The translations under genes and the position numbers were made by a program. Below, piece by piece: positions 18,901 to 62,968 of a stretch of DNA of 64,000 nt. Below the pieces are notes generated by a model. That model ran no database searches. It saw only the letters and a list, made by a program, of their open reading frames with translations, and was not told the origin of the DNA. The first letter of the stretch is position 1; every line of letters starts with the position of its first letter. This stretch comes from Eledone cirrhosa (lineage: Eukaryota): assembly GCA_964016885.1 (NCBI GenBank), contig OZ024742.1:320168001-320232000 (forward strand), given 5' to 3'.

Positions 18901-21900
18901 CAACTTCAATATTCTATTTCAACCTAGACAAATAGACAAGGATGCATATACGTGATCTGATGACTTGCTAGAAATAGTAACATGATATATTTAAAACCAC
19001 ACACACGGTAAGGTGTGTGTATGAGAAAATGTCTTGAGAAAAAAAACACATTGTATGTAGTTTTATATAATATTGCCTTATAAAATACAGATTAAAAAAG
19101 CCGGATAATGTGAAGAAGAATGCATTTGATTATAGACTTGCTCGATCTGGGCCTACTTGGGAGTTAAACAGCATAATATAATATATATTTTAATCGATGG
19201 ATGGCATCTATACCCTAAGCCCCATACTTTAATCTGACACGACCCCTAAACACATACATGCATAAACATATCTCAATCAGTGACAATTTCAAATCATATA
19301 TAGAATGTTTTTAATCTATAAGCAAGCAACCCTAGCCAAGTTCTGTTTGCAGTTTTCAGAAATATATATATATATTCAATATTCAATTTAAGTGAAAAAA
19401 TTACATTTTATAGCTCAAATCACTTTATTATATGTAGTGTTTCTATGCTGATAATTTATTAAGCGGCTTTCGAAAATGCCGGTCGGGTCAGACCGTTGCA
19501 AAGTAAATAATACGACGTCCACTAGGTGATTCTTCGTTGTCGCTCGATCTACTAGAAATAGCAGGCAAATCTCCATCATATCACATCTTGTTGTTTAAAA
19601 AAGGAAAGAAGAAAAGATAAAAAACGGAGGAAAGACTGTGGATACTGTTAGTTCTAGGTACACAATGTCTATATAAAACAATGGCTGAGATGGTCACGAA
19701 TGGAACGCTTCTTAACCGATAAGTCTATTTGATCAACACTGACCAGGGGCTAAACAACGAGTCTTCTTTTTCCTCTACTACTACCACTATTACTACCACC
19801 ACCTGGTTGATTCATTGACGAAAAAACGAAGTAGTAGTAACTTAATCATAACCACAAAAAGTCATGATGTACGCTTACGTAATCTAGTAACGGAAATAAA
19901 GTCGCAGAAATATATTTCGGAGAGAATAAAGTCACAGCGGAAATAAAGTCAATGAAAAACTTCGTTAAATAAATGATTTAAGATGTTTTTTTCTTGTTTT
20001 ATTTTAAGATATTGAATAAAGGTCTCCCCTCTCCCATCGGTGCTAGCACGACTGAGGTTGAGGAGTTCAATTCGTAACCACGTGGCCTCGGGTTCTGTCC
20101 CTCAGTCTGACATATTGGGCAAGTGTCTGCTACTAATAACTTCGGTGGGGTTGACGATTGACCTTGTGAGTGAAATTTCGAAGACAAAAAACTGCTGAAG
20201 CCTGTCATATATATTTGCTCTAGGGTTCTTATATGCTTGATATATATTTATCCTTATCGAGCCCTCTTTGGATTTTAGTCTTCACATTTATTATTATTAC
20301 TATATATATATATATATATATATGCCATACTGTATCAAATCATGTATTATCAGTTAAGACATAACTTAAATTATTAGCTAATTACTTCAAATCTTAATAT
20401 TTATGGTATTCAAATGAAGTGCAACCTTTTTTGACCGTGTACATTTTTTTTCTAGCCAACAAAAATTGTGATTTTTAATGTCTTTATTTCCGTTCACAGA
20501 TTTACAAACTTGCTCAACGAGATTCAATAAACAGCCTTCGAGATTATGGTCTCAGCTAGTTTTAGATTTTTTTAGGCGTGGGGGAAACTATAAAACAAAG
20601 ATTCTCGACATTTTTAATGTGTATAAGATGGGAGAAAGGACAATGAATATATATATATATTAGAAAGAGTCGGGGCCCGACGGCTGAGCTGTTGCTATAC
20701 TCTATTATCCCATGTATCGAGTACTCTGTTTAAAACTGATACCTTATTAAAACGGTTGCTAGTGCATTATTTTAGTTATCTGACCTTCCTTAGGCCCTAA
20801 CTGTCTTGGGCAATTTAAACCTGACGGAGCCCATCATTTTCAAGGCCTGAATACAGCTGATTTCTTCCATCGAAAGAGAGCGGAGGTAAAAGCGGCTGGT
20901 TAAGAACAATCAACCTTAGTCCTGGACTGGTATTTTATTTATCAACTGCAAAAAATGGAAAGTAGATTTCGGCGAGATTTGAACACGGGGTGGAAAGGTC
21001 TAAAGCATAAAAAAAATAAAAAAACTTCTCAATTTAATTCGTCGAGTCCAGGGATTTGCAATTTATATTATTTGAAAATCAAGATGAAAATCCTTTAAAA
21101 TGATGCCGAAGATTTAATGATTGTCTTTGTCTTTAATTATGCATTGGTCTGTCTTAATCGAGCAGACTAAGATGCAAAAGCATTCTAGCTGTGACTAACT
21201 CAACCCAACCCAACCCAACCCGTCTTTCACCCACAGCTCATTTCAAAACGATATTTTCCAACATGTCCTTATTTCTTTTTTTTTTTTTCTTTCTAAAAGA
21301 TGATAAAGTGTGAATTGAGAGAGGGATATTTAGCTGTTATTTCTAGCAGGTCGACTGACCACCTCGATATACTCCCTCATTAGCACATGGAATTCCATTA
21401 ACGTTTATAACACTTGGTTGAGTAAAGGAGCATTTTCTTCATTTGTTCGTTTATCATATTCTTCTTTCAAGAATTATATTTATCGTTTTGTTTTAAAAGT
21501 AATTTTTGTTAATTATCAATCAGCTATTGATTAATTTATTTATGAAATTTTCTTAAGTCCACTCCTGCGTTGATAAGGTAGTAAATGATGGTATTTTATA
21601 TACAAGTTACAATTCCTTAAACTACGCCTACTAAACTACCAACAAAACCACCTGCATCATCATCACCATCATAATAATCATCAGCATCCGCGTCATCGTC
21701 AACAACACAAATCTATCTGCCGGCATCAACAACGATCAAGTAGAACCGGCAGAACCTTATTATTTGACTTTGCCTTTCATCCTTACGGGGTCGATAAAAT
21801 AAAGTACCAGTAATACACTAGTATTTGCTGACCTTGTGCCAAAAGTAGAAACAATTAAAATTTCTTATCATTTACTCTTTTATCTGTTCCAAGCCATCCG

Positions 21901-22041
21901 GTTGAGGCCATGCTGGGGCACCGCCCTTGAAATTTATATAAAAAATAAAGCAATAACATGTACAAACAACTTACATCGATCATTGAATTTAAATATAGAT
22001 TTTAAAAATTGTTTTATTTCATTGACGGAGAGCAAGCTAGG

Positions 22042-22074
<33 letters not shown>

Positions 22075-22391
22075 GGTGAATAGCACATATATAACATAAT
22101 ATAATAGGGGTTTACATGCTATAAATAATATCTACACTACTTTCTTTAAAGTATGAAGTACTATGTCGAATAATGGTTTACTAGTCTCAATTAGTAGCAT
22201 TTTATATCTCTCACGTAACCCATCTCGCCTATTTCTCTCTATATAATATATATACATATACATGATCCTGTGAGTACACAGGTAAAACTCCTAACTAACA
22301 AGACTCATCTCTTCGCCATAATTAAGAATATATATATACAAACACAGCTGATATAGTGTACTTTCTAGTGATAAAAAAAAAAAAATTATAA

Positions 22392-22638
22392 CCGAAAGAC
22401 TGAAGTTGTCCCCTTTCAAGTAGTCGTCAGTACATTATATATAGTGGTGTATAGTAGTCGTCAAATCAAACATTGGCTTGCCATTGCTACAGTTAGTGAT
22501 CATCAGCAATGATGTTCACATTCACTTCTTCTTTCTCTCCAAGACTCATAGACATTACCCTATTGCTCTCCTCATGCCGCTCTACTTGCTCATCCCACTC
22601 CTCTTTATGTTTGTCTCTCTTTCTTTCTCTCCATGTCA

Positions 22639-22690
<52 letters not shown>

Positions 22691-22937
22691 TGACATGGAG
22701 AGAAAGAAAGAGAGACAAACATAAAGAGGAGTGGGATGAGCAAGTAGAGCGGCATGAGGAGAGCAATAGGGTAATGTCTATGAGTCTTGGAGAGAAAGAA
22801 GAAGTGAATGTGAACATCATTGCTGATGATCACTAACTGTAGCAATGGCAAGCCAATGTTTGATTTGACGACTACTATACACCACTATATATAATGTACT
22901 GACGACTACTTGAAAGGGGACAACTTCAGTCTTTCGG
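22392..22937. repeat. Perfect 546 bp palindrome centred on (TA)n
   Basis: The arms are exact reverse complements. Mirrored ORFs 22478..22693+ and 22636..22851- give identical peptides. Confidence 0.95.
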
Positions 22938-23905
22938 AGTGTGCCCAGGCGCTCACCGCCCTCTGGCAGGCGGATCCGGTTATCAGTGGAGACTCCACCG
23001 CAACATTCTATAGAGGGCTGGTACGCAGCAGGTGCGACGACGCCCTCGGAGAAGCCCTAGACATGGAGGAGGACGAACTGGCCAGCCTTTTCGGTAGGAC
23101 ATTTAGCCCGGGACCTATGGACAACTTCCAGAAGTCCCTGGCCTGGCAGTGCTACCGAGGGGCTTTACCCGTTCGAGAAAGGCTCTACAGACACGGGCGC
23201 CCGGGTAGGGACCCCGCCAAAAAGATCTGTCCCAGATGCGTGTGCGACGAGGAAACCGTTGCACACGCATTAGTACACTGCTCGGGCGTAGCCGATCTGT
23301 GGGGCTATGTCGAACAACTGCTGTCAAGGGTGGGACCGATCCGGTTGACCACCGAGTCTATTGTAATGATCAAGCCGCCTCCCCCCTTCAAAGATGAAGC
23401 AGAGGCGGTGTTTCTGTGCGTAATAGCCATGGCGAAAGAGGTTGTATGGTGGACGCGTCTGAAAGGACTGAGGTCGGGCACCTTTCTCTCTGGCCAACAA
23501 CTGGTCCGTTTCTTCCGATATCATTTCGGAAGAAGGATCAGGATGGAGAGAGAGGTGCTGCACCCCAGCCGTTTCTATGAAAGATGGGTGAAAGTGGCGA
23601 GAATGGCCCGTGTGAATGGGCCTTCACTCTACATCAGACTATAGGTGAGGAAGATGAAAGACCAAGGGAGCACCCCTTCTCTGTGCTCCTGAGGAGAAGG
23701 GTTGCACACTTTTTTCGGGGGTGTGTGCGACCCCCCAAGGCGCCTCCTCTCTATTGAGGATTTTGTTAAAAATTTTATTTTTTGTTATATCTTATTTTAT
23801 TTTTATATTTTGTTATTGCCTTCTCCTTATTGAGGACGCCTTTTTGTGTAAACTCCCCCCTTTGTACTTGTCCCACTTTTGATGCCCTAGTGGCAAATAA
23901 AAGAA
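22938..23905 (+). mobile_element. 5'-truncated Tx1/L1-clade LINE: ORF2 C-terminal zinc-knuckle region + 3' UTR
   Basis: ORF 22910..23644 contains W.CYRGALPVRERL...CPRC...ETVAHALVHC...W, typical of the L1/Tx1 ORF2 C-terminus. AATAAA at about 23897 precedes (TA)n. Confidence 0.85.
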
Positions 23906-24359
23906 ATATATATATATATAATGTGTGTGTGTGTACATATATACATGTTTATAAACACACATACACATATATGTGTGTGCACGCATGTATATATATGAAA
24001 CTAATAACTGTAATTGTATCTCTGTGTTTGCGTTTTTTTGATCTTGAAATATATGTACATATTCCGGGCTGGTTGTCTGGCGAGCTTGTAAAAGGACGAC
24101 TCTAAACGAAAACACTTCTTAGCTTTGGTTAAATCATGTCTATAGGAGAAAGTTACTCTGATATAAAACCCTTTGTGCTGGGACTGCTCGTGTCCACTTT
24201 GAAAATCTTTTGGGATAGCTTAAGATTAGCCCTGGATTAACCATCAAGCAAAATAAGCATGTACTTAGTGCCTAAAGTAAAGAGGGCCTTACAATAATTG
24301 AAATGTACATATATTTTCATTTTTTTTTGTGAGACCCCTTTAATGTATTTTTTTAACGA

Positions 24360-24499
24360 AGGTACATGCCGCCTCGACCTGTTTCTGGACCAGGCCAGCA
24401 GGGTGAAGGAAAGGACCTATTAAGTGTATTTGGACCTAAAATGCATGAGCATTGCTGACTTTAGTCAGTGATAGTCTTCACCGAACACGACTGGTCAGC

Positions 24500-24542
<43 letters not shown>
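24360..24542 (+). mobile_element. Probable RTE-like LINE 3' end with (ATC)n tail
   Basis: Ends in cagccatcatcatc..., the same terminus as the RTE at about 62960 (gcagccatca). Confidence 0.5.
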
Positions 24543-24544
24543 GC

Positions 24545-24597
<53 letters not shown>

Positions 24598-25013
24598 CAA
24601 AAAGTTATGAAACGAAAGGAGCTGTGTGGTTACTAAAACAAGGTTTAGGATGGTGGTTAGGACGGAACAGGAGGAGAAAGGAAGAAAGGAGTTTCCATCG
24701 TCAGCTGTAAATGTTTCTCGAACCGATGTTTCGGCGCTGAATTACAGGACATCGGTGTATTTTTATTAATCAAAAGGCCAGGTGGAAAATGAGAGAGAAA
24801 GAGAGAAAAAAAGGGGAGAAAAAAGGAGAGAGAAAAGGAAAGAGAGGGAGGGAAAGGAGGAAGAACAGGGGGGATGAGGAGAGTGGAAGAAGGGGGAAGG
24901 GAAAAGGGGAAAATAGGAAAGGAATAGGAGAAAAAAAAATGGACAGGTCCCATCGTGGGAAGACACAGGTGAAAGAAACATGCAGAAAAGTAACCGTGGA
25001 AAAATAGGGAAAG

Positions 25014-25047
<34 letters not shown>

Positions 25048-25181
25048 AAAGTTAATCAAGGTTCAATGAATGTATCAAAGAATGAGTTTTACAATAGATT
25101 GGAAGCACTCAACAGTTATAAAAAAAGGTTATTAATATTAATTCAAAATATTAACAAAATAGATATTCTTGTGATCAATTA

Positions 25182-25248
25182 TATTTTATTATACATATTT
25201 CAGAGGTACTGAGTTAAGTTTAACAGTACGTCCTCATCAGATAAAATA
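25182..25248 (-). ncRNA. Minimal type I hammerhead ribozyme
   Basis: tattttat CTGATGA ggacGTACTG-ttaaacttaact-CAGTACctct GAAA tatgta TA ataaaata. Stem I is 8 bp, core intact, AUA triplet. Confidence 0.8.
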
Positions 25249-25369
25249 GGATGATGCATGACATACCCTGACATAGTAGATGGTTAAGATTCAGTCATGA
25301 CTGAATCTTAACCATTGTATAATAAAATATAATTGATCACAAGAATATCTATTTTGTTAATATTTTGAA

Positions 25370-25404
<35 letters not shown>

Positions 25405-25734
25405 AAATATATATGTATATATCTCTGACCCCGACGGCAGAGCTCAAGCCGTTTCGACGTCTATTTCTGGACGTCCAGAAATAGCCGTCGAAACGGCTTG
25501 AGCTCTGCCGTCGGGGGTCAAACATTTTCCTATTACCCACTCTACTACCCTAACTATTGAGTACCCTGGTGCGTTATGGTCCATCTGGTTCCTTACCACA
25601 CCTCCTTCGTTATATATATATATATATAACGAAGGAGGTGTGGTAATATATATAACATCTAGGTGTGGTAATATATATAACATCTAACTCTTATTTATAT
25701 CTATATGAATTAGTATAAATTTATCCCTATAAAT

Positions 25735-26595
25735 ATATAAGTATCTACACGTACATACATATATGTATACAGACGTACAGTAGTATGTATATATATATAC
25801 ATACATATATATGTACGTATGGATTCACCGAATATTTATTATAATGCTCGGTGTATTTGTAAACAAACATCCCGTATTAAGCCGTAGTGTCCAGCAACCA
25901 TCGTTGCTCGTTTGTTCAACACTGACAAAGGAACGCTGTACTAGTTTCAAGCTTATTAGCTATCGTCAGCAACGTATACTTTCCTGCCAGATTATTGAAC
26001 GTATATACTTACCTTATGCATATTAACGGCTGAGTAGCCCAATTTGCATATCGAGTGGGTTTATCGGCCGGGTGCACCGAAAACGATAAACGGAAAAAAT
26101 GAAACGAAATTTCATTTCCCACTCTTAGTACGGCTGTTACTTAAATATAAGTATGTTCACGTACATACATATATGTATACAGACGTACAGTAGTATGTAT
26201 ATATATATACATACATGCACACATATATATATATGTACGTATGGATTCACCGAACATTTACAATCTGGCAGGAAGGTATACGTTGCTGACAATAGCTAAT
26301 AAGCTTGAAACTAGTACAGCGTTCCTTTGTCAGTGTTGAACAAACGAGCAACGATGGTTGCTGGACACTACGGCTTAATACGGGATGTTTGTTTACAAAC
26401 ACACCGAGCATTATAATAAATGTTCGGTGAATCCATACGTACATATATATATGTGCGCATGTATGTATATATATATATATATATACATACTACTGTACGT
26501 CTGTATACATATATGTATGTACGTGTACATACTTATATTTAAGTAACAACCGCACTAAGAGTGGGAAATGAAATTTCGTTTCATTTTTCCGTTTA
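25735..26595. repeat. Complex fold-back duplication of an HHR-bearing element
   Basis: 25735-25995 is inverted at about 26256-26541. 26086-26260 repeats part of it directly and is inverted at 26420-26595. Mirrored ORFs 25811+ and 26247-. Confidence 0.85.
25933..25975 (-). ncRNA. Minimal type I hammerhead ribozyme
   Basis: acgttg CTGACGA tAGCTaataAGCTt GAAA CTAG TA cagcgt. Palindromic stem III, GUA triplet. The inverted copy at 26280-26322(+) has core CTGACAA. Confidence 0.82.
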
Positions 26596-27329
26596 CCTAT
26601 AAATATACCTATCAATTAAATTAATTTAATTTCTTTTTATAGATCTAAATTCCTTATGTTTTAAATAAGATTGATATTTTTTCACTAACACATTTATCGT
26701 AAAATTTTATTCTCCTTAGATTTTAACATTAGCATTATTCTTTAATAACATCAAATTTTCGTGTACCTTTCACCGGCTTGACCTATTTTCATCCGCAAAG
26801 TAATCTTTTTATTCAAAATACTCTTTCCATTCAAAACTGAAGTCTGCATTCCTCTACCCCTAAATTAAATTTCTGCTACTACTATTCTATTAACTTGACC
26901 ACTTACTACTTTTCTATTGGTCAATTCAAAACCTGTTCCCAAACAGACCTATTATATTAAATCTTTGTTGTTTTTTTTCAATAAACAAATATCATTCTGA
27001 GTTCAAATCCCGCCGAGGTTAACTTTGCCTTTCTTCCTTACGGGGTCGATAAAATAAAGTACCAGTAATGTACTGGGTAATTGCAATTATTTCTGAAGAC
27101 AGCATATATATGTGTAGGTATGTATATTCCTTCTGATAGTTTGTAAAATTTTTACATAGATATACATACCAACACACACATATATATCCAAGAAACGATC
27201 GTAGAATGATGATTTTTTTAATATAAGGAACTGTTTCTTTGTTTTTATTCATTATTTTTATTAATTTATATATATATAGGATGATGAGGATATATATATA
27301 TTAAGATGCTCACGATCATAGGGTCGACC

Positions 27330-27609: not shown

Positions 27610-28870
27610 ATATCTTCTTTGCCCACTTATTCCTTACAGGGTCGGAGGAGCAGAATCCTCAGACACGCCTTCCAAAGGTAGCAACAATCAGTAGCAACAA
27701 TCTCCAAATGTTTTGACTGTAGATTATGGATGTTAATCATCTTGCTCGTAGTCTATCCTTGGGTTTCCTACTGGTTGGTTTTGTCCGTAAAATCTGTCCA
27801 ACGATTCTTTCCTTAGACATTCTTACCACATATCTGGAGTACCGGAGCTGTAATCATTCAATCTGGAGAAGTAGCGGCTCTACCTGGAACGACTCCCTGA
27901 TCTCCGAGCTACGCACTCTATCGAATAAGGTTACTCCAAAAACCATTCGGTCATCACCCAAGGTAACCCATAGGTAAGGGTTGACACGATCAGCGAATTG
28001 GTGATAGCGAGTTTGACTTTTACATTTACCTCCCTTCTTTTGATGACAGAATGCAGAAGCCGGCTCATTACTGCACCAGCTCCAGCAATTCTTGCATTTA
28101 ATTCAGCTTCTCGCCTTGCTTTACTTGAAAAAAAGGCTACCAGATACTTGAACTTATCCGCCTTCTTCAGTGGAACTCTGCTTACACGTAGAGTGCACTG
28201 CACAGGTTTTCTCGGGAAGACGAATGCCTTAGTCTTCGCAGTACTGATTTTCATTCCTGCAGCATCGCACTCAGCAGCAAACATATCCATTGCATGTTAA
28301 GTATTACCACATCTTCTGCAAATATCAACTGACTGATCCGACACCTACCGCCTTTGATATCACTTTGAACTTAGTTGCGCATTTCAACCCTATTTATGAA
28401 AATTATGAACAGGAGAGGGGACTATACGCACTTTTGGCTGAGTGCGACATCCATATTGAATGGTTTCAAATTAGCACCATTTATCCAAACACAAATACTA
28501 GAGTATTTGTATAGGACTTCAAGGCAACGAGAAGCTAGCCGTCGATCCTATATTACTGCAGAACCTTCCACAACAAGTCCAGTGGAACGTAGTCTTTTCA
28601 AACAAGCATACACACCGAAGTCCTGCCTCACAATGAATACTTCGCCGGCTGTGCTGCACCCAGGGTGAAAACCTTATTGTTCACCTGTTAGCTTGAATCC
28701 GACAGGATCTCTATATCTCTTTGCCAGACATTTAGCATAGACTTTACCGAGGAGGCTTAACAAGGAAATTCCTATATAATTAAAGCAATTTCTCTTGTCA
28801 CCCTTTTTGAAAATTAGGATTATCATTCCAAATTGCCATTGGTTTGAAGTGCAGGTAATACGATATGGCA
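27610..28870 (-). mobile_element. Degenerate RTE-like LINE (RT domain to 3' end)
   Basis: ORFs 28674..28871 (IFKKGDKRNCFNYIGISLLSLLGKVY) and 27931..28290 (GMKISTAKTK...FKYL). Frameshifted. Confidence 0.85.
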
Positions 28871-31676: not shown

Positions 31677-32294
31677 GTACAGTCACTCGTTTAATGGTCT
31701 CGGCTCGGGATATACAATGAATATCATAATATATTTTTACTGTCCTCCATTAACTAACTACTAGAGAAACATTTAAGCACGGCACTGCTGTACTCTTCCT
31801 GCATGTTCACAGCACTATTTTACATATAATAAAAAGAAGCAAAGGTTTAAATACAAGTGCCTCGGCGATTTTCCGACACTCTTATTTCCACATCAATGCC
31901 GGATTATCCATTTTGCAGGACCATATAATTTCACGAGAAATATATTAACGAAGTCGGAAACACTATCTGTAGCCCTTAATTATAATAATAATGAGACGCC
32001 AATTTTTTAAGATTCTATCTAATGACGGGAATTATTGGTTATTGTCCGATACAAAACTAAGCAGACTACACTATTCAATAAAGTACTATAATAGAATACT
32101 ACCAAGAAGACTACTAGTCAATAAAGTATTCAAAAACACATAAAGATCAACTGTTTTGGTTCACTCTCAGAACCTCGCCAGGGATGTAGTGTCCCAGCAT
32201 GACCGCAGTATACTGACTGAAATATGTAAAAGAATAAAATAACATGGCTATTAAGTCACACATAATAAATCAATATATATATATATATATATAT

Positions 32295-33899
32295 CGTTTC
32301 TGAATTTGTTTAGCAAGATTCTTTATCTGAAAACGTGTGTTGAAACCGATATTGTCATGTTGCCAATAAGAAACACACGCACCAGTGCTTTCACTTCAAT
32401 TTATTATAAATTAAATTATAAACTTAAAAATTTATAAATTTCCGGTTGGTTGGTTGGTTCCACAACCGGACGGTTGTTCATATATTGTCAAAGTTCTTTC
32501 GTCACACATTCTGTGACCTCATCAGCGACTGGGGATTCTTTTCTTTGTTTTGTGCCTCTCCTTTGTTCTGTCCTACGCCATCTTGTTTTTGTGTGTGTTG
32601 TGTGCTTAGTTTGCGCATGTGTTACATCCGGGTGTCTGTGTGTGTTTTTATTTGTTTATTTATTTGTTTATTTACATGTTACTAGTTAGTTGTTTGTTCT
32701 ATGTGTGTGTATGTTTTCATTTTGTCCTTAATTGTAAGTTGTGATGTTGCTATTCCATTCATGTTTTCTATTTAATTTTGGTTGGAGTTCATTTATGTTT
32801 ATTGCCTCTGTGATTTGTCTAAACATTGCGTCTTTTCTGTGCGTAGATTTTATTTTTATTTCTATGTTCTCTAATTTGCCCTTATGTTCTATTTTAGCAT
32901 GTTGGTGGAGTACTGATGAGTCTTTTCTATCTTGGAATTCTCGCCAGTGTTCATTTAATCGTTCTCCTGTGCTACGAGCTGTCTCGCCTATGTACATTAT
33001 ATTCTTATCTTTACATTGTCCCTCAGTACACCTTATGCTATATACTATGTTTTTAGTTTTACAGTTAATATGGGGGCTTAGTTTACAGATTATGCATTTC
33101 TTATCTATACAGGGAGGTCTTTGAAAAGGGTATGTATTACTAATAAGTATTTTTATGGAGGTACCTGGTCTTTCCACTATCTTAATATTTAGTTTAAGTT
33201 TATCTAGGGCCCTTCTAAATTTGTAAGCTAGTTCACCTCTAGGGGTTGTATTGATGAACATTACACTCTGGTATTTATTGCTATCATACCATGAGTTTAT
33301 TTTATTAACCTTATTCTTAATTCTTTCTATTCTATTCCAAAATTTGCTCCTATACAAGGGGCAGGTCCCAATGTATCATTATATACCATTTTTTCCCATT
33401 TGGTCTGGCTCCTCTATATACTGTGATTTTATCTCTCTGGTTGTAACCAGAGAACTGCATACGGTGGATGAAGTATTGTATGTGTCTCTCTAGTTCTTTG
33501 GGGTTGCACATGCGGGACACGTTCTTCATCACCTTTACTAAATCCGCAATCAGTAAGTTGATTTTGGTGTGATCCGAAACAGCTGAGTTTCGGTGGATCA
33601 GGTATTTGGAAGTCATGGGTTTGACATAATGGGAATGGAGGATTTGTATTTTTGTTATTAATGGTTTCTAACCAGAGCTCTGTGTCTAGTACAGGTAATC
33701 GATGGTTGGGGTGTTTGCTTGGGTAGTCTATAGTAACTTTAATACTCTGGTGGATGGAGTTAGCTATTTGCTGGATGCTTTCAATGGTGTTTTTCTCTAA
33801 TTCCTGACTATTCTCTAGTGGAGGTGTTTTTACTACGATGTTTATATCATCAACGTAGCGGGAGTACATAATCAGGGTTAAGAGGTTGCTGTCTTCTAA
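32295..33899 (-). mobile_element. 5'-truncated Penelope-like retroelement (RT C-terminal part + GIY-YIG endonuclease + 3' pLTR)
   Basis: YSRYVDD...LPVLD (33429..33869) and IVYSIRC...MYIGETAR...ERLNEH...TEAINI...LN (32728..33357). Frameshifted. 3' end abuts (TA)n at 32294. Confidence 0.92.
32487..32529 (-). ncRNA. Penelope pLTR hammerhead ribozyme
   Basis: gtcg CTGATGA gGTCACAgaatgTGTGAC GAAA gaac TT tgac. Confidence 0.8.
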
Positions 33900-33923
33900 T
33901 TAGAAGACAACAACCTCTTAACC

Positions 33924-34880
33924 TTCCGTATTCCCAATATTTGCTCCCAAATACAGGAAGTCCTCAACCAATTCTAGCGGCTTCCCGCCTACATTAGTGA
34001 TCCCATCTGGCTTCTCAACATTCTCTACCAGATATTTTGTTTTAGTCTCATTCATTCTCAGCCACACACTCATCGACACAGTCTCAACCGCCTGCATCAA
34101 ATCCTCTGCCTCCTTCACTGTATTTGTCACCAAAACTATGTCGTCGGCAAATTCAGCATCCGATATCTTTTTCGCCTTAACTCTCCTGCTCTGAGCCGGT
34201 GCTACAGTAAAGCCAGAGTCCTGGTGTTTCCCCAGTGCAAGGTGCATACAATAGTCCACTACGATGATAAAAAGGTAGGGAGCCATTGTATCTCCCTGGA
34301 GCACTCCAGCCAGTATCTCAAAGAACTCTGTCATCCCATCAGGTGTAATGACACGGGCTTTGGTGTTGGTGTAGAGCAGTGATATCAGGTCCACTATCTT
34401 CTTGAGGATTCCATAAGCCTGTAAGATCTTCATCAGGCAGTGACGGTCCACAGAATCAAAGGCCTTCCTAAAGTCAATGAAAACCATGACCGCAGGAAGG
34501 CACTTTGCTCTAGCTCCCTCTAATATCCTCCTCAGCATCAGGATGCGACTGGTGGTTGATCTTCCCTCTCTGAAGCCGTTCTGGATGAAAAACTCAGAGT
34601 TGTATGGGAGCCTCCCAAAAGTCAGCTCAAAAGTGACACAGAGGAAACTGAGGTTAGCTGGACATGCTCACCGACATCCAGAGTTGACATTGCACTCAGT
34701 GCTCCCGTGGGATCCCCTACATGGACACACTGGAAGAGGAAGATCAAAGTTAACGTATGTTGATGCCCTAAGGACAGACACTGGTCTGTTGGAGACGCAG
34801 GACATGGCAGCGATAATGAGGGACAGAGACCGCTGGAGAGAACTCGTCCATGGATCTCGGGAATTTTACCCGCCCTAGAA
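33924..34880. mobile_element. RTE-like LINE with inverted 5' segment (twin-priming type)
   Basis: RT motifs (QNGFR, FIDFRKAFDSV, GVLQGD, FADD, FLYLG) on the minus strand at 33924-~34585. The C-terminus (RLAGHAHRH...RGR...DRDRWR) is on the plus strand at ~34586-34878 and ends at TA/CA repeats. Confidence 0.88.
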
Positions 34881-34897
34881 TATATATACATACATAT

Positions 34898-35010
<113 letters not shown>

Positions 35011-35290
35011 ACAAAGGAATTGTGGTAAGGAACCAGATGGACCATAACGCACCAGAGTACTCAATACTTAGGGTAGTAGAGTGGGAAATAGAAAAAAAGT
35101 ATGACCCCGACGGGATAGAAATGATTTCTACGGGACTAGAACTGTTACATTCGTATGAAATCATTAGGAATGAAACAGTTCAAGTCTTGTAGAAGACATT
35201 TCTGTATAAAATAAAGAACCTTATTCTCTATTAACGTGTTGAGAATCTTATTTAACTACACACACGCACACGCATGCGCGCTCACGCGCA

Positions 35291-43556: not shown

Positions 43557-44424
43557 GAGGTTATATTTAATTTGTTGGGATTCAACAAGCTTAAACATTT
43601 TTATAACTGATATAAAGCACTCAACAATTAGTGGAGTAAATACACAATATATTAATAAATGAAAACTATATTTATAAAACCATATTTATTTTATTTTACA
43701 TATTTCAAGGGCCACCAAGGCAAATTATGGTGCGCTTTGATCAGATAAAATACAGATTTGTTTTATAAATAAATATTGACATACCCGGAAAAAAGACAAC
43801 CTTAACGGTTGGAGCTTCCTGGATAGTGGAGATAATATTTTATTGAAGGTAATACAAAGTTATGAGTGAGTATGCAAATGATTTTAATAATTTTGATTTC
43901 TAATTTTTAATTTTAATTTAATTTTTCAACTTATTATAAATATTATAATCGCAACGTAATGAACCCTACATTCTAAATATTATTCTTCCACGTTAATCTT
44001 ATTTCTTCTTTCATTTCTTCTTTCACTTAGATATATTTACGCTATGTATATTTTTCCATTTAAACTTATTTCTTCATTCATTCTGACTTTCTTCAATATC
44101 ACTATGTATAATCGTTCTTTCTTTCCTCTTCTGGATTTCTCCTTCCTTTTCTTTTTTTCTTTTTTTCTTCTCTCTCCCTTACATATCATCCTCTTCCAAC
44201 AGTTTAATTTAAATAAACCGTTATCTTTTCAACTTTTCGGACACTCATTTGCATACTCACTCATAACTTTGTATTACCCTCAATAAAATATTATCTCCAC
44301 TATCCAGGAAGCTCCAACCGTTAAGGTTGTCTTTTTCCGGGTATGTCAATATTTATTTATAAAACAAATCTGTATTTTATCTGATGAAAGCGCACCATAA
44401 TTTGCCTTGGTTGCCCTTGAAATA
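43557..44424. mobile_element. Non-coding PLE-like element with ~180 bp inverted repeats carrying HHR motifs
   Basis: 43701-43881 is inverted at 44245-44424. HHR motifs at 43687-43752(-) (core mutated to CTGATCA) and 44373-44430(+) (CTGATGA...GAAA). Confidence 0.75.
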
Positions 44425-46680: not shown

Positions 46681-46682
<2 letters not shown>

Positions 46683-46942
46683 AAGGCGGGTAAAATTCCC
46701 GAGATCCATGGACGAGTTCTCTCCAGCGGTCTCTGTCCCTCATTATCGCTGCCATATCCTGTATCTCCAACAGGCCAGTGTCTGTCCCTAGGGCATCAAC
46801 ATATGTTAACCTTGGTCTTCCTCTTCTAGTGTGTCCATGTAGGGGCTCCCAAAGGAGCACTGAGTGCAATGTCAACTCTGGATGTCGGTGAGCATGTCCA
46901 GCCAACCTCAGTCTCCTCTGTGTCACTTTTGAGCTGACTTTT

Positions 46943-46945
<3 letters not shown>
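46681..46945 (-). mobile_element. 265 bp 3' end of the same RTE-like LINE as 34586-34878, embedded in (TA)n
   Basis: Translates [30 protein letters not shown]...GSREFYPP*. (TA)n on both sides. Confidence 0.9.
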
Positions 46946-47581
<636 letters not shown>

Positions 47582-48708: not shown

Positions 48709-48800
<92 letters not shown>

Positions 48801-48946
48801 ATACTTTGGGAGGGTCATGTTGCCAATAAGAAACACACGCACCAGTTGCTTTCACTTCAATTTATTATAATAAATTTATAAATTTAAGAATTTATAAATT
48901 TCTGGTTGGTTGGTTGGTTCCACAACCAGATAGTTGTTTATATATT

Positions 48947-48989
48947 GTCAAAGTTCTTTCGTCACACATTCTGTGACCTCTTCAGTGAC
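48947..48989 (-). ncRNA. Penelope pLTR hammerhead ribozyme
   Basis: gtca CTGAAGA gGTCACAgaatgTGTGAC GAAA gaac TT tgac. Confidence 0.8.
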
Positions 48990-49606
48990 TGGGGATTCTT
49001 TTCTTTGTTTTTGTTTTTGTGCCTCTCCTTTGTTTTGTCCTACGCCATTTTGTTTCTCTGTGTATGTTGTGTGCTCAGTCTGCGCATGCGCCACATCCGG
49101 GTGTCTGTGTGTGTTTATATTCGTTTATTTATTTGTTTATTTACATGTTACCAGCTGGTTGTTTGTTCTATGTGCGTGTGTGTTTTCATTTGTCCTTAAT
49201 TGTAAGTTGTGATGTTGCTGTTCCACTCATATTTTCTATTTAATTTTGGTTGTAATTCTTTTATGTTTATTGCCTCTGTGATTTGTCTAAGCATTGCGTC
49301 TTTTCTGTGTGTAGATTCTATTTTTATTTCTATGTTCTCTAATTTACCCTTATGTTCTATTTTAGCATGTTGGTAGAGTACAGATGATTCTTTACTATCT
49401 TGAAGGTCTCGCCAGTGTTCATTTATCCGTTCCCCTACACTACGAGCTGTCTCACCTATGTACACTATATGTTTGTCTCTACATTGTCCTTCAGTACATC
49501 TTATGCTAGTAAAGAATCATCTGTACTCTACCAACAAACAAATGGCGTAGGACAGAACAAAGGAGAGGCACAAAAACAAAAACAAAAACAAAGAAAAGAA
49601 TCCCCA

Positions 49607-49649
49607 GTCACTGAAGAGGTCACAGAATGTGTGACGAAAGAACTTTGAC
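49607..49649 (+). ncRNA. Penelope pLTR hammerhead ribozyme (inverted copy)
   Basis: Same sequence as 48947-48989 on the opposite strand. Confidence 0.8.
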
Positions 49650-50146
49650 AATATATAAACAACTATCTGGTTGTGGAACCAACCAACCAACCAGAAATTT
49701 ATAAATTCCTAAATTTATAAATTTATTATAATAAATTGAAGTGAAAGCAACTGGTGCGTGTGTTTCTTATTGGCAACATGACCCTCCCAAAGTATAACAA
49801 TATCGGTTTCAACACACGATTTCAGATAAAGAATCTTGCTAAACAAATTCAGAAACGATATATATATATATATATACCTATATATGTATATATAACGAAG
49901 GAGCATACCGCACCAGAGTACTCAATACTTAGGGTAGTAGAGTGGGTAATAGGAGAAAGTATGACCCCGACGGCAGAGCTACACTTAGTCCAGAAATAGC
50001 CGTCGAGGGTGAAAGCAGCGATTCTTTGCTTAAACTTTAATCTGTTATTTTAATAAATATTTGCTCTACGGTTCTTATATATTTGATATATATTTATCCT
50101 TATCGAGCCCTCTTTGGATTTTAGTCTTCAAATTTATTATTATTAC

Positions 50147-58261: not shown

Positions 58262-60683
58262 TAAACCTCTTCTTAGGACATTAGTTGTCCTTAATCTGAC
58301 CTCTGACTGTGACTATTCGGGTTTATATTATTATCCGCGCTTGAAAAGCATGCTGTACTAAGAAGGTTCATTCAAGATTCGTGGCTGGAGTCTCTTGCTT
58401 AAGACAGTAATTGAACCCAATTCTTGACAAGTGCATTATTGACTTCACCGGTATTTGAACTCAACGTAAAGAGTCAGAATAAATATAGCAAAGCATTTTG
58501 TCCGATTCTCTAACGATTCTGATGTGCATCCAATAATGGATTCTGATTTAAATACCAGATCAGCAATTTTGGAAGAGAGCAAATGGGGTAAGTTAGTTAA
58601 ATCGACTCCAAGTACTTTATTTTATCGATGGCAAAGTTAACCTGAACTCAGAACTTAATTGAGCTGAATCTGGATTTGAATGCCGTATAGTGTTGTGTCC
58701 GACGTTCTAACGAGACTGCAACCTCACCGACTTTGAACGTAATTGCACAGAAAATATCGGAAACAAAAATATATAAATAAAGAATCAAATAAATAAATAT
58801 ACTGTATACAAATATAGTTATTAAAAAAACAGAACAGAAAACATTTTTAACTTTGTATAATAGAATAGATCATGATAGAATAGATTATGACAGCCTTTAA
58901 CCGCGATCACGTTGAGATATGTCTATATGATAGAGTTCAAATCCCGCCGGGGTTAACTTTGCCTTTCATCCTTACGGGGTCGATAAAATAAAGCACCAGT
59001 AATGCACTGGGATAATTGCTGGCCTTGTGCCAAAAGTAGAAACAATTATCTATATTGAGAAAGAATTTGCATGAAGAAACTTCATATAAATATCAAGGGA
59101 TGTATGACAAATCATAAGAAAAGGAACTGATTCATATCAGAGCAACGATAGAGGTTAAAACAACCTGTTCACCTCCAATAACGTAGTGACACATTCCCTA
59201 CTCATCAAGGAGACAGTCATGTATCTCCCCCTCTTGTCATTAGCATCAACTGCATACATAGATCCAGACTTGAAGGCTTCAAAATTCCATGGGACTGACT
59301 AAACAATTTACCCTTTTGATATCAACCTACCAGAAACCGTCTTTGGTTCTAAGATTTACAAAAAAAAAAAAAAAAAAAAAGAACCCTAACAAACCGTTCG
59401 TTTTAAAATGTTTATATTATTTTATATTAATCTTTCATTATAATTTTATGTAAGAAACTTTTCCTCAGTTTATAATCCAAACGCCGGCTTAATAACAAGA
59501 AAATCAGTTATTTTACTGAATCCCTCCAAATTTGTTTTTCGGAATTAATTGGAAATCATAGACAGTCTTTTATTAGAAATATGGTAAAGATTAAAAGAAA
59601 AAAAAAATCAATGTAAATTTTAAAATTGCAATATATAATGTCTGCTGCCTGCTTAGCAACAAGTAATGTTGTCAACAAAAAGTAAGAACGATTGAGTAGA
59701 GAGTTATGGTCGTTTCAGTCATGACCATCTTTCCCTTTATTCCAATATAGTGTATCTAAGACAACATTATCCAATATATGCCCCCATTTTCAGGACGGTA
59801 AAGTGTAATTTGAGGAAGATTTGGTTGCTATTTCTCGCATGTCAAGAGACTACGTAGAGACTTCTTCGTTGGCTCGTTATAGATAACATTGAAAGCATTA
59901 CAAAGACAGAATAGAATTTCCAATAAATCATTAATAATAATTTCTTTGAGAGATGAAACCATATAAGATCAAAGAAAGAAATAGCCGACATGCGAATACT
60001 AAATCTTGAGTCTATGTGAATTTCTAGTTTAGTACGGCGAAAGATTTTGATGGTGGCGAAGTGTCAGAATCGTTTGAGCGTCGAATAGAATGTCTTGCAT
60101 TTTACCTTAACTAACAGATTGCTATGCCATACCATGCCATGAGCCTTTAACATCTGACAGAGTCGTTATGGTATTTAAATCTGAAGGAGTCTATCCTCAT
60201 CCAGGTCTGAACATAGCTGATTTTCATTTCTTTCAATGAAAAGCAACAGTAAAGCAGAGCATAATTAAAAACAGTATATCAAAATGTAGTACTGTTTTTA
60301 ATACCGCTTCTGCTTTGCTGTTGCTTTTGATTGCTCTTGTAATTTGCAATATATTAATTGGTATAGTATGAACCTCATCTATGGTATGGAGTTATCTCTT
60401 GTATGTAATACATTTGAAACTTCAAACAATATCTAAACCCCTGAAGATATGAAGATATGTCGAGCGAGGGACAGATACCGCGTATGTATCGTAGTATGGC
60501 CCACCGCTCTACATTGAAACATATGTAGAATACAAATTATGTTTTAAGTATAAATTGGTTATTCACTCTCTATTAATATATATATATATTAATAGAGAGT
60601 GAATAACCAATTTATATGATATGTCCCAAGGCTCTGATACCATCAACACTATAAACACAGCTGGCATATCTAAGAACTGACTA

Positions 60684-60739
60684 ACTGCCTGATGAGGTCA
60701 TAGCCATTCAATGGCTATCATCGAAATATATATAGCAGT
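60684..60739 (+). ncRNA. Minimal type I hammerhead ribozyme
   Basis: actgc CTGATGA ggtcATAGCCATTcAATGGCTATcatc GAAA tatata TA gcagt. Confidence 0.85.
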
Positions 60740-60784
60740 AAATAAAGGATTATGAGTTCATGCAATTGACTTATGTTTCGTCAC

Positions 60785-60819
<35 letters not shown>

Positions 60820-60821
<2 letters not shown>

Positions 60822-62968
60822 TATACAGTCTGCTCAGGGAGGTGTATGGTCCGACCTGTTCACAAATATCACCACTTCGCTCCGGGGACGGCAAGGAATT
60901 GCTCAGAGATCCGAAGGAAATCCTGATCAGGATCAACAGACCATCAGAAATTGATGATGAGTTCATCCGGTCGATTCCATCCAGACCTACAAAGCTGGCA
61001 ATGGCTGATCCTCCTTCATTTGATGAGGTGGCGAAGGCCATTGTCAAATTAAACAGCGGCAAGTCATTTGGAATGGATGGACTGAGTGCCGAGATTTTCA
61101 AGTGTGCTGGTGATAACTTCTTAAACCACCTCACTGATCTCTTTGTGAATGTTTGGAATGAAGAAGATGTGCCACAGGATTGGAAAGATGCATTGATGGT
61201 GGTACTTTACAAAGGAAAGGGAGCCAAAGGTGACTGTGGCAACTACAGAGGTATTTCACTGCTATCTGTGGCTGGGAAGATCTTGTGCAGGATATTGTTG
61301 GACAGATTGATACAGCACATTGCTGTTGAGGTACTTCCTGAGTCCCAATGTGGCTTTAGGAATAGCAGAGGTACTGTTGACATGATTTTCTCGGCCAAAC
61401 AACTTCAAGAGAAATGCATTGAGCAGCGCATGGACTTATACCAAGTTTTTGTCGATCTGACCAAGGCATTTGACACCGTTAATCGGAAGGCTTTGTGGGT
61501 TATTTTAGAGAGATTGGGCTGTCCTAAAAAGTTTGTGAACATTCTGAAACTCTTCCACGATGACATGCAGGCATGGGTGAATGTTGGAGGTAAACTGTCT
61601 GAGCCAATCTCGGTTGAAAATGGTGTCAAGCAGGGTGATATACCTGCACCAACTTTGTTTGCCTTGTATTTCGCGATGGTGTTCTTCATGGCCTTCAAGG
61701 ATTGTCAACACGGTATCTATCTTAGATATCGCACTTTCGACAAGCTGTTTAACCTTAGGCGTCTCACTGCCAACACTAAGGGACTGAGTACCTTGATCAG
61801 AGAAATTTTATATGCAGATGATTGTGATCTCTTTGCACACTCCCAGAGTGACATGCAACACCTTATGGATTCTTTTTCCAATGCATGCAGTGCTTTGGGA
61901 CTGACAATCAGTCTGAAGAAGACTGTCGTCATGTACCAACCTGCTCCGAATAAAGTTTTCAATGAACCCTCCATACATGTATACGGTCAAAAGCTGAAGG
62001 CTGCTGACACATTTGTGTATTTGGGGAGTACTCTGAGTGTGACCTGTTCTCTGGATGCAGAAGTTGGTCTACGTGTTAGTAAGGCAAGTGAGTCATTTGG
62101 AAGGCTCAACGACCGTCTTTGGTGCAGGCGAGGAATCACAATGAGGACCAAGGTGAGAGTGTATGCTGCATGAGTGCTGTCAGCTTTGCTGTATGCATGT
62201 GAGATATGGGTTGCCTAAAAACGGAATAGCCACAGACTGGAACGGTTTCACCAGCAGTGTCTCAGAAAGATGCTTGGTATCAAGTGGCAGATGCATGTGA
62301 GTGATGTTGAGGTCCTTGAGAGAAGTGAGTGTCGGAGCATTGAGAGTATCATCCACCAACGGCGTTTGCGATGGACCGGACACCTCTGCAGAATGGAGGA
62401 TGATCGAATCCCAAAACAACTCTTGTATGGAGAGCTTTGTGAGGGTAAGAGACCACCTCACAAACCAAAGCTCCGATTCAAGGATTGTGTAAAGGACTCA
62501 TTGAAAAAAACTGGTTTGATGATGGCTGACTGGGAGATAGAAGCTCTTGAAAGAGAAACTTGGCGTGGAATGGTGAATGATGGGGTCCATATTTTGAGGA
62601 CAGACGTATAGGGCACGAGAAGATCAAAAGGGATGTGCGTAAGCAATGCCCTGGTGTATCTCTCGAAACGATCGGTGTCTCCATTGAATTGAAGTGCCCT
62701 GAGTGTGGAAAAATTTGCTTGAGCAAATCTGGTCTCAGGAGCCACAGTCACAGCCAGGTTCAAAGAGAACCAGTGAACTATGATCTCCACGGTGTTGTGA
62801 GGGTTCACGGGCAACCTGATGCGGGACCTCAAGCCAGGGAGATCCATAGTTGTCGTCAGTGTGTGAAGGAGTGCAAGTCTTTAGCAGACTTGAAAAGCCA
62901 TATCCGAGCGTCCCACATCTGAATCTGACAAGCAATTGCAATACTCTTGGCAGAGTTTGCAGCCATCA
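60820..62968 (+). mobile_element. 5'-truncated RTE-clade LINE with RT and C-terminal C2H2 zinc fingers (pseudogenised)
   Basis: ORF 60842..62173 (YRGISLLS, QCGFR, DLTKAFD, GVKQGD, YADD, YLGS) continues through stops to 62270..62611 (RRLRWTGHLCRM) and CPECGK...H / CRQCVK...H. Flanked by (TA)n on both sides. Confidence 0.93.

Follow-up and report, generated by a model that had tools for sequence, protein, structure and literature searches.

A Penelope-like element and an RTE-like LINE joined between two TA microsatellites in Eledone cirrhosa

In a window of 64,000 nucleotides of the Eledone cirrhosa genome (contig OZ024742.1; coordinates are those of the window), a Penelope-like element (PLE) and an RTE-like LINE were found joined to each other between two TA-containing microsatellites. 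The locus is a composite of two known structures and is real and well-formed; one such locus was observed. Insertion of the PLE and the RTE in one repair event at one TA-tract break is plausible but unproven, and we put it slightly short of an even chance. Sequential insertion accompanied by deletion, its two forms taken together, stands at an even chance and is as likely as one event; these weights, and those given below, are judgements and were not computed.

Order, orientation and junctions of the composite

Re-reading of the sequence confirmed the order of parts given in the initial annotation, namely TA, PLE, hairpin, inverted RTE, RTE 3' end, and TA/CA repeats. The left target and primer site is an (AT)11 tract (32273-32294). 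It is followed by the PLE (32295-33899, minus strand), which is 5'-truncated, carries a C-terminal endonuclease, and has its 3' end on the left; a hairpin (33876-33923), a zero-loop palindrome whose 24-bp arms have a single mismatch; and an inverted RTE reverse transcriptase (RT) segment with an open frame (33924-34584, minus strand), which matches residues 498-717 of protein P0001 at 81% and Pfam RVT_1 with an E value of 6e-21. The RTE 3' end then runs up to the stop codon (34583-34878, plus strand; P0001 residues 797-892) and borders the right target, a TA/TACA/CA/TA microsatellite (34879-35009), after which an unclassified TA-associated repeat starts at 35010. The earlier statement that no host DNA separates the parts also held, the PLE, hairpin, and RTE pieces being contiguous from 32295 to 34878. 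The PLE and RTE had in addition been described as joined 5' to 5', which is wrong, because the PLE and the adjoining RTE segment both lie on the minus strand in the same sense. The downstream end of the inverted RTE segment meets the PLE head via the fold-back, and the only head-to-head joint, with 2 nt of microhomology, is the one between the two RTE pieces at 34583-34584, inside the RTE part.

Both junctions rest on one assembly. Reads and contigs from 4 of 13 runs were aligned to 31700-34890, a range that excluded the right flank owing to its long CA repeat, and none of the 24 contig pieces that were listed, from a set with 49,097 more, spanned the PLE/RTE or the RTE/RTE joint. Both families were very abundant, with 21,083-26,918 contigs aligned in X1 and X5. 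An assembly chimera of abundant repeats would be in keeping with this abundance, with the missing spanning piece, and with the presence in the same window of a perfect palindrome (22392-22937; 273-bp arms, zero mismatch, a TA tract at the centre), which itself reflects either something very recent or an artefact of assembly; against a chimera stand the one-base difference between the hairpin arms, the 2-nt microhomology at the RTE joint, the twin-priming order of the RTE pieces, and the exact agreement of the outer ends with those of the families, so that we regard this explanation as very improbable. One X5 contig was identical to the left flank over 448 nt, its match ending at 32147 with 191 letters left over; the break at 32147-32148 is possibly an indel or a different allele.

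The two elements and their relatives in the window

The PLE contains the end of the RT (YVDD), the thumb, a CX4CXXC linker, a GIY-YIG endonuclease, and the 3' region. P0121 was collinear with it in three pieces at 39-50%, crossing two frameshifts (tblastn), and frameshift indels relative to reads of the family lie near 33403 and 33648. The Pfam match to GIY-YIG had an E value of 0.0026, under the curated cutoff. The CX4CXXC linker was likewise present in 47 of 52 relatives with the YxGET motif, and a CX2-5CxxC linker upstream of GIY-YIG is described as a feature of the Neptune/Nematis clade in PMC8557442. Motifs and domain layout, rather than a tree, suggest a PLE of the Neptune/Nematis type. 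A terminal tail of about 59 nt (32295-32353, minus strand) was delimited by alignment to a second copy in the window, in which it is on the right arm and missing from the left arm; tails in PMC8557442 measure 30-40 nt, and the tail is optional in PLEs (PMC8557442, PMC11167929). The PLE 3' region also holds a candidate hammerhead-like core (32490-32530, minus strand), found by eye from CUGAUGA, a 6-bp stem, and GAAA, with a folding z of -0.91 and no Rfam match. This candidate was missed by a strict hammerhead-core scan, which gave four matches in the window (39448, 44381, 60689, and 25240) versus a mean of 0.43 in 30 shuffles.

The right hairpin arm (33900-33923) repeats, in fold-back and with one mismatch, the final 24 nt of the PLE, and the region 33860-33940 folded with a z of -9.55, none of 200 shuffles being as stable. 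The hairpin was rejected as native PLE sequence, in that relatives align up to 33899 and a stop lies in frame across the right arm. A microRNA reading was rejected too, Rfam having given chance microRNA and snoRNA matches far under the gathering scores.

The second copy, 92% identical to the PLE at 32295-33899, serves as an internal control: at 48794-49857 two tail-out arms of the same PLE family mirror each other between TA tracts. This pair has a 30-nt fold-back at the joint, where 49507-49536 copies 49368-49397 from 109 nt back; the tail is on a single arm, and the arms differ at 3 of 258 positions. The left end of the PLE in the composite is the same base as the start of the tailed arm of this copy. 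Because the hairpin and the tail-out layout recur at 48794-49857, and also in PMC3846280 and PMC8557442, they are already known. The hairpin is therefore an ordinary PLE feature, a habit of the family, and the unusual point is that the RTE occupies the place of the mirror arm.

Several further inverted structures were observed in the window. A short unrelated element at 25045-25376, probably another PLE end or a retrozyme, carries a hammerhead core (25198-25240, minus strand) and is likewise arranged as a tail-out pair flanked by TA tracts, with an 18-nt zero-loop fold-back (25298-25315) and a 61-nt second arm without mismatch. The unclassified repeat adjoins TA tracts at three places (25429-25646, 35010-35113, and 49897-49973); at 25429-25516 it forms a palindrome with 44-bp arms joined to TA, and at 25593-25646 two of its ends point at each other, separated by TA. 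At 43701-44424, two inverted copies of about 180 nt share 98% identity and include a hammerhead core at 44381; this is possibly another tail-out PLE-like structure. In addition, a palindrome with 34-bp arms precedes a short hammerhead-bearing element ending in TA (60549-60788), and unclassified inverted repeats of about 260 nt and about 175 nt, at 92% identity, are nested at 25735-26595.

The LINE was assigned to RTE by its domain layout and by C-terminal motifs that we take to be RTE-like, not by a tree; its closest relatives, P0001 and P0004, have a single ORF with an AP endonuclease and an RT, of which the window holds the RT and C-terminal parts only. By codon count against P0001, about 234 nt of RTE sequence is missing between the inverted and forward pieces, and the only match to the missing stretch elsewhere in the window was the distant LINE family at 62126-62281. 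At the RTE/RTE joint, family contigs whose alignment breaks off there (in X5 at 34583 and at 34584, in X1 at 34584; 24 of 3,136 such loose ends were listed) supplied the native continuation on both sides, which gave the 2-nt overlap. At the hairpin side, a single X2 contig, from another organism, matched the RTE to 33923 and thus indicated an overlap of about 1 nt.

The internal control for the RTE was a solitary 3' piece of its family (46681-46946, minus strand), which has TA tracts on both sides, differs from the RTE 3' end at 34583-34878 by 15 mismatches in 266, and has the same end base, at the stop codon. A further 18 + 1 related loci were distant (32-61% identity) and informative for 3' ends only; among the 14 of these 19 that had a match near the C terminus and were examined, 10 had a short tandem tail from the stop codon and 1 had a TA tract there. 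An octopus RTE, RTE-2_OV, ends in a microsatellite right at the end of its ORF (PMC9115989). A 24-nt RTE-end pattern had 0 matches in metagenome and genome contigs, and relatives of the PLE and RTE proteins were absent from the viral contigs searched. A small minus-strand fragment of another LINE RT (28623-28844) was 36-38% identical to RTE relatives, and an RTE-like element also turned up in a contig assigned to a bacterial metagenome-assembled genome, probably as eukaryotic contamination.

One repair event or successive insertions

Both families insert in TA tracts independently within the window, and a second, distant LINE family (about 60820-62968) also has TA on both sides. Five tract ends (25373, 25611, 34992, 49858, and 60788) carry two elements, and a TA spacer was kept in all five. 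The adjacency of PLE and RTE is accordingly unremarkable, which tells against the need for one event, and only the absent spacer needs explaining. A shared target duplication, which would have favored one event, was unreadable because both flanks are microsatellite, the best non-TA flank match being 8 nt of the CA/TA type. A target duplication taking in the hairpin end was rejected, with a best match of 5 nt.

The initial annotation had proposed that the two ends of a break primed cDNAs on different RNAs. This stood in so far as both outer ends are genuine priming ends, given that the PLE start matches the tailed arm and the RTE stop-codon end matches both 46681-46946 and 10 of the 14 related loci; it failed in the number of cDNAs, three pieces rather than two being needed because the inverted RTE segment requires its own priming or a template jump. 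Built on the observed order, orientation, fold-back, microhomology, and family habits, one event would run as follows. A PLE endonuclease, by in vitro precedent from another PLE, would cut both strands in the TA tract, and the left break end would prime 1.6 kb of PLE cDNA from the tail. This cDNA would stop and fold back 24 nt, as heads of its family do, and the free 3' end of the fold-back would continue for 661 nt on RTE RNA, presumably by a template jump or by weak internal priming, an extension that would replace the meeting with a second PLE arm. The right break end would prime 296 nt on the 3' end of the RTE, and the RTE cDNAs from the two sides would anneal via 2 nt, followed by fill-in. 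The simultaneity of these steps and the enzyme acting on each piece are likewise suggested rather than read directly.

The fold-back bears on the choice between one event and prior formation of a PLE mirror pair, of which the right arm and the TA spacer would have been lost either when the RTE inserted with target deletion or through a later deletion or cruciform break between independent neighbours. The mirror pair is the normal product of this PLE family (48794-49857). Long inverted repeats and zero-loop palindromes are prone to breakage, and a cut at the hairpin base could be expected to fall near 33923. The endpoint of such a loss would nevertheless have had to land in a stretch of about 30 nt among several hundred, the locus retains nothing of a right PLE arm beyond the 24 nt, and 5'-inverted L1 insertions tend to have discrete duplications rather than deletions (PMC11702581). 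The 24-nt fold-back is also sized like those of the intact joints (30 nt at 49507-49536 and 18 nt at 25298-25315); both intact fold-backs run directly into the partner arm, and a random later deletion would rarely stop there. These points favor one event, and loss from a mirror pair appears unlikely.

The missing spacer bears on a second order of events, in which a 5'-inverted RTE was already present in TA and a single-armed PLE inserted on its left, its fold-back joining the RTE and removing the TA and part of the inverted segment. TA tracts common to different elements in the window are in line with this order, and PMC3846280 gives a case of a PLE that was joined into a different non-LTR element through microhomology, with a 5' palindrome and without target duplication. 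It requires, on the other side, a rare LINE inversion together with deletion of all TA, and the single-armed fold-back at 25429 retained its TA. The spacer was kept there and at both other RTE heads (46946 and 60820), so that its absence here speaks for one event. Furthermore, 5' inversions were nearly confined to human L1 among the LINEs tested in PMC4245944, a set without RTE. Insertion of the PLE into an older RTE is doubtful, and we rank it level with loss from a mirror pair.

The relative ages of the two parts separated these readings little. Positions at which at least 95% of the X5 depth read otherwise numbered at least 8 of 399 in the PLE and at least 9 of 661 in the inverted RTE (Fisher p 0.45), and X2 contigs set ceilings of 17 in the PLE and 15 in the RTE (8-17/399 versus 9-15/660). 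This is a weak test, drawn from 40 of 669 rows and one PLE stretch; the comparison of upper bounds, which gave p 0.10, was run with an RTE value of 16 although the ceiling is 15. In the hairpin, 1 of 24 pairs was mismatched. The overlap of the divergence ranges is weakly consistent with one event, and the PLE was not visibly younger than the RTE, as it should be had it inserted later. The repeat landscape of the window is like that of octopus genomes. RTEs and PLEs both have recently active copies in one octopus species (PMC13282606).

The RTE pieces themselves depart from L1 twin priming in ways that count against one event: the gap of about 234 nt compares with an L1 median of 14.5, and the forward piece (296 nt) is shorter than the inverted one (661 nt), opposite to L1 (both 10.1101/2024.08.27.596794), and the outer overlap of about 1 nt compares with 2-5 nt in about 70% of inverted L1 (PMC2912911). 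These departures would also fit a template jump and, equally, trimming of an older RTE, to which the gap and the small overlap would be due if the RTE came first. Two other informative PLE-like joints lead into an arm of the same family, no PLE-to-RTE joint was present among the 15 joints listed of 501, and neither a spanning piece nor an empty site was found among the contig pieces listed for 31700-34890, a range without the right flank. On the side of one event, cleavage and extension of both strands by a PLE have been seen in vitro (PMC11167929), and opposite-facing insertions of two RNAs are documented for L1 (PMC11702581, PMC13174262).

Implications and comparison with known systems

If the composite arose in one event, the presence of foreign RNA in the place of the mirror arm would mean that each arm has its own priming and that the end of the fold-back acts as a free and promiscuous primer; two retroelement classes would also have exchanged sequence at insertion. 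If it arose sequentially, it would amount to a commonplace accumulation of elements at a microsatellite hot spot. A wider proposal is that PLE-made double-strand breaks in TA tracts are used also by LINEs, with the PLE RT jumping from the fold-back to RTE RNA or the RTE enzyme taking over a PLE break, and that cross-class co-insertion is recurrent; we consider this more unlikely than either sequential order, though less so than an assembly chimera. Were it correct, the TA preference of RTEs, seen in 2 of 2 copies in the window and in the second LINE family versus 1 of 14 related loci elsewhere, would be partly borrowed from the PLE endonuclease. No PLE-plus-LINE co-insertion was found in the literature searched, which comprised papers without their supplements and few of the subscription papers.

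PLEs inserted head to head, with palindromes at the junction, a tail on one side, and a preference for TA, have been described (PMC3846280, PMC8557442), a lizard PLE is able in vitro to cut both strands and extend them (PMC11167929), and how PLEs build head-to-head structures is an open question according to PMC8557442. The present locus has in common with these insertions the tail-out layout, the head palindrome, the tail at one end, and the TA targeting; it differs in that the second arm of the same element is absent and RTE LINE sequence is found instead. With L1 twin priming it shares an inverted upstream segment that does not overlap the 3' piece, short microhomology, and an internal deletion. 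The differences are that the element is an RTE, that the gap is about 234 nt, that the inverted piece exceeds the forward piece, and that the outer overlap is about 1 nt; moreover, the left "primer" is the PLE fold-back, whereas in L1 it is host DNA.

Chimeras of two RNAs made by L1 form the third comparison. Among 452 Alu/L1 chimeras in PMC13174262, 83-88% were same-sense and the rest opposite, and PMC11702581 reports nine de novo two-transcript insertions, in which opposite orientation was read as the joining of two separately extended ends. In these systems (antisense Alu/L1, tRNA/L1, and 5S/L1 in PMC13174262; mRNA/L1 in PMC11702581), two RNAs are inserted at one site, and same-sense and opposite-sense joints both occur, as at the PLE/RTE locus. 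In the L1 chimeras, L1 ORF2p carries out all steps and a target duplication proves one event, whereas the PLE/RTE locus has no readable duplication and brings together two autonomous classes, each with its own enzymes.
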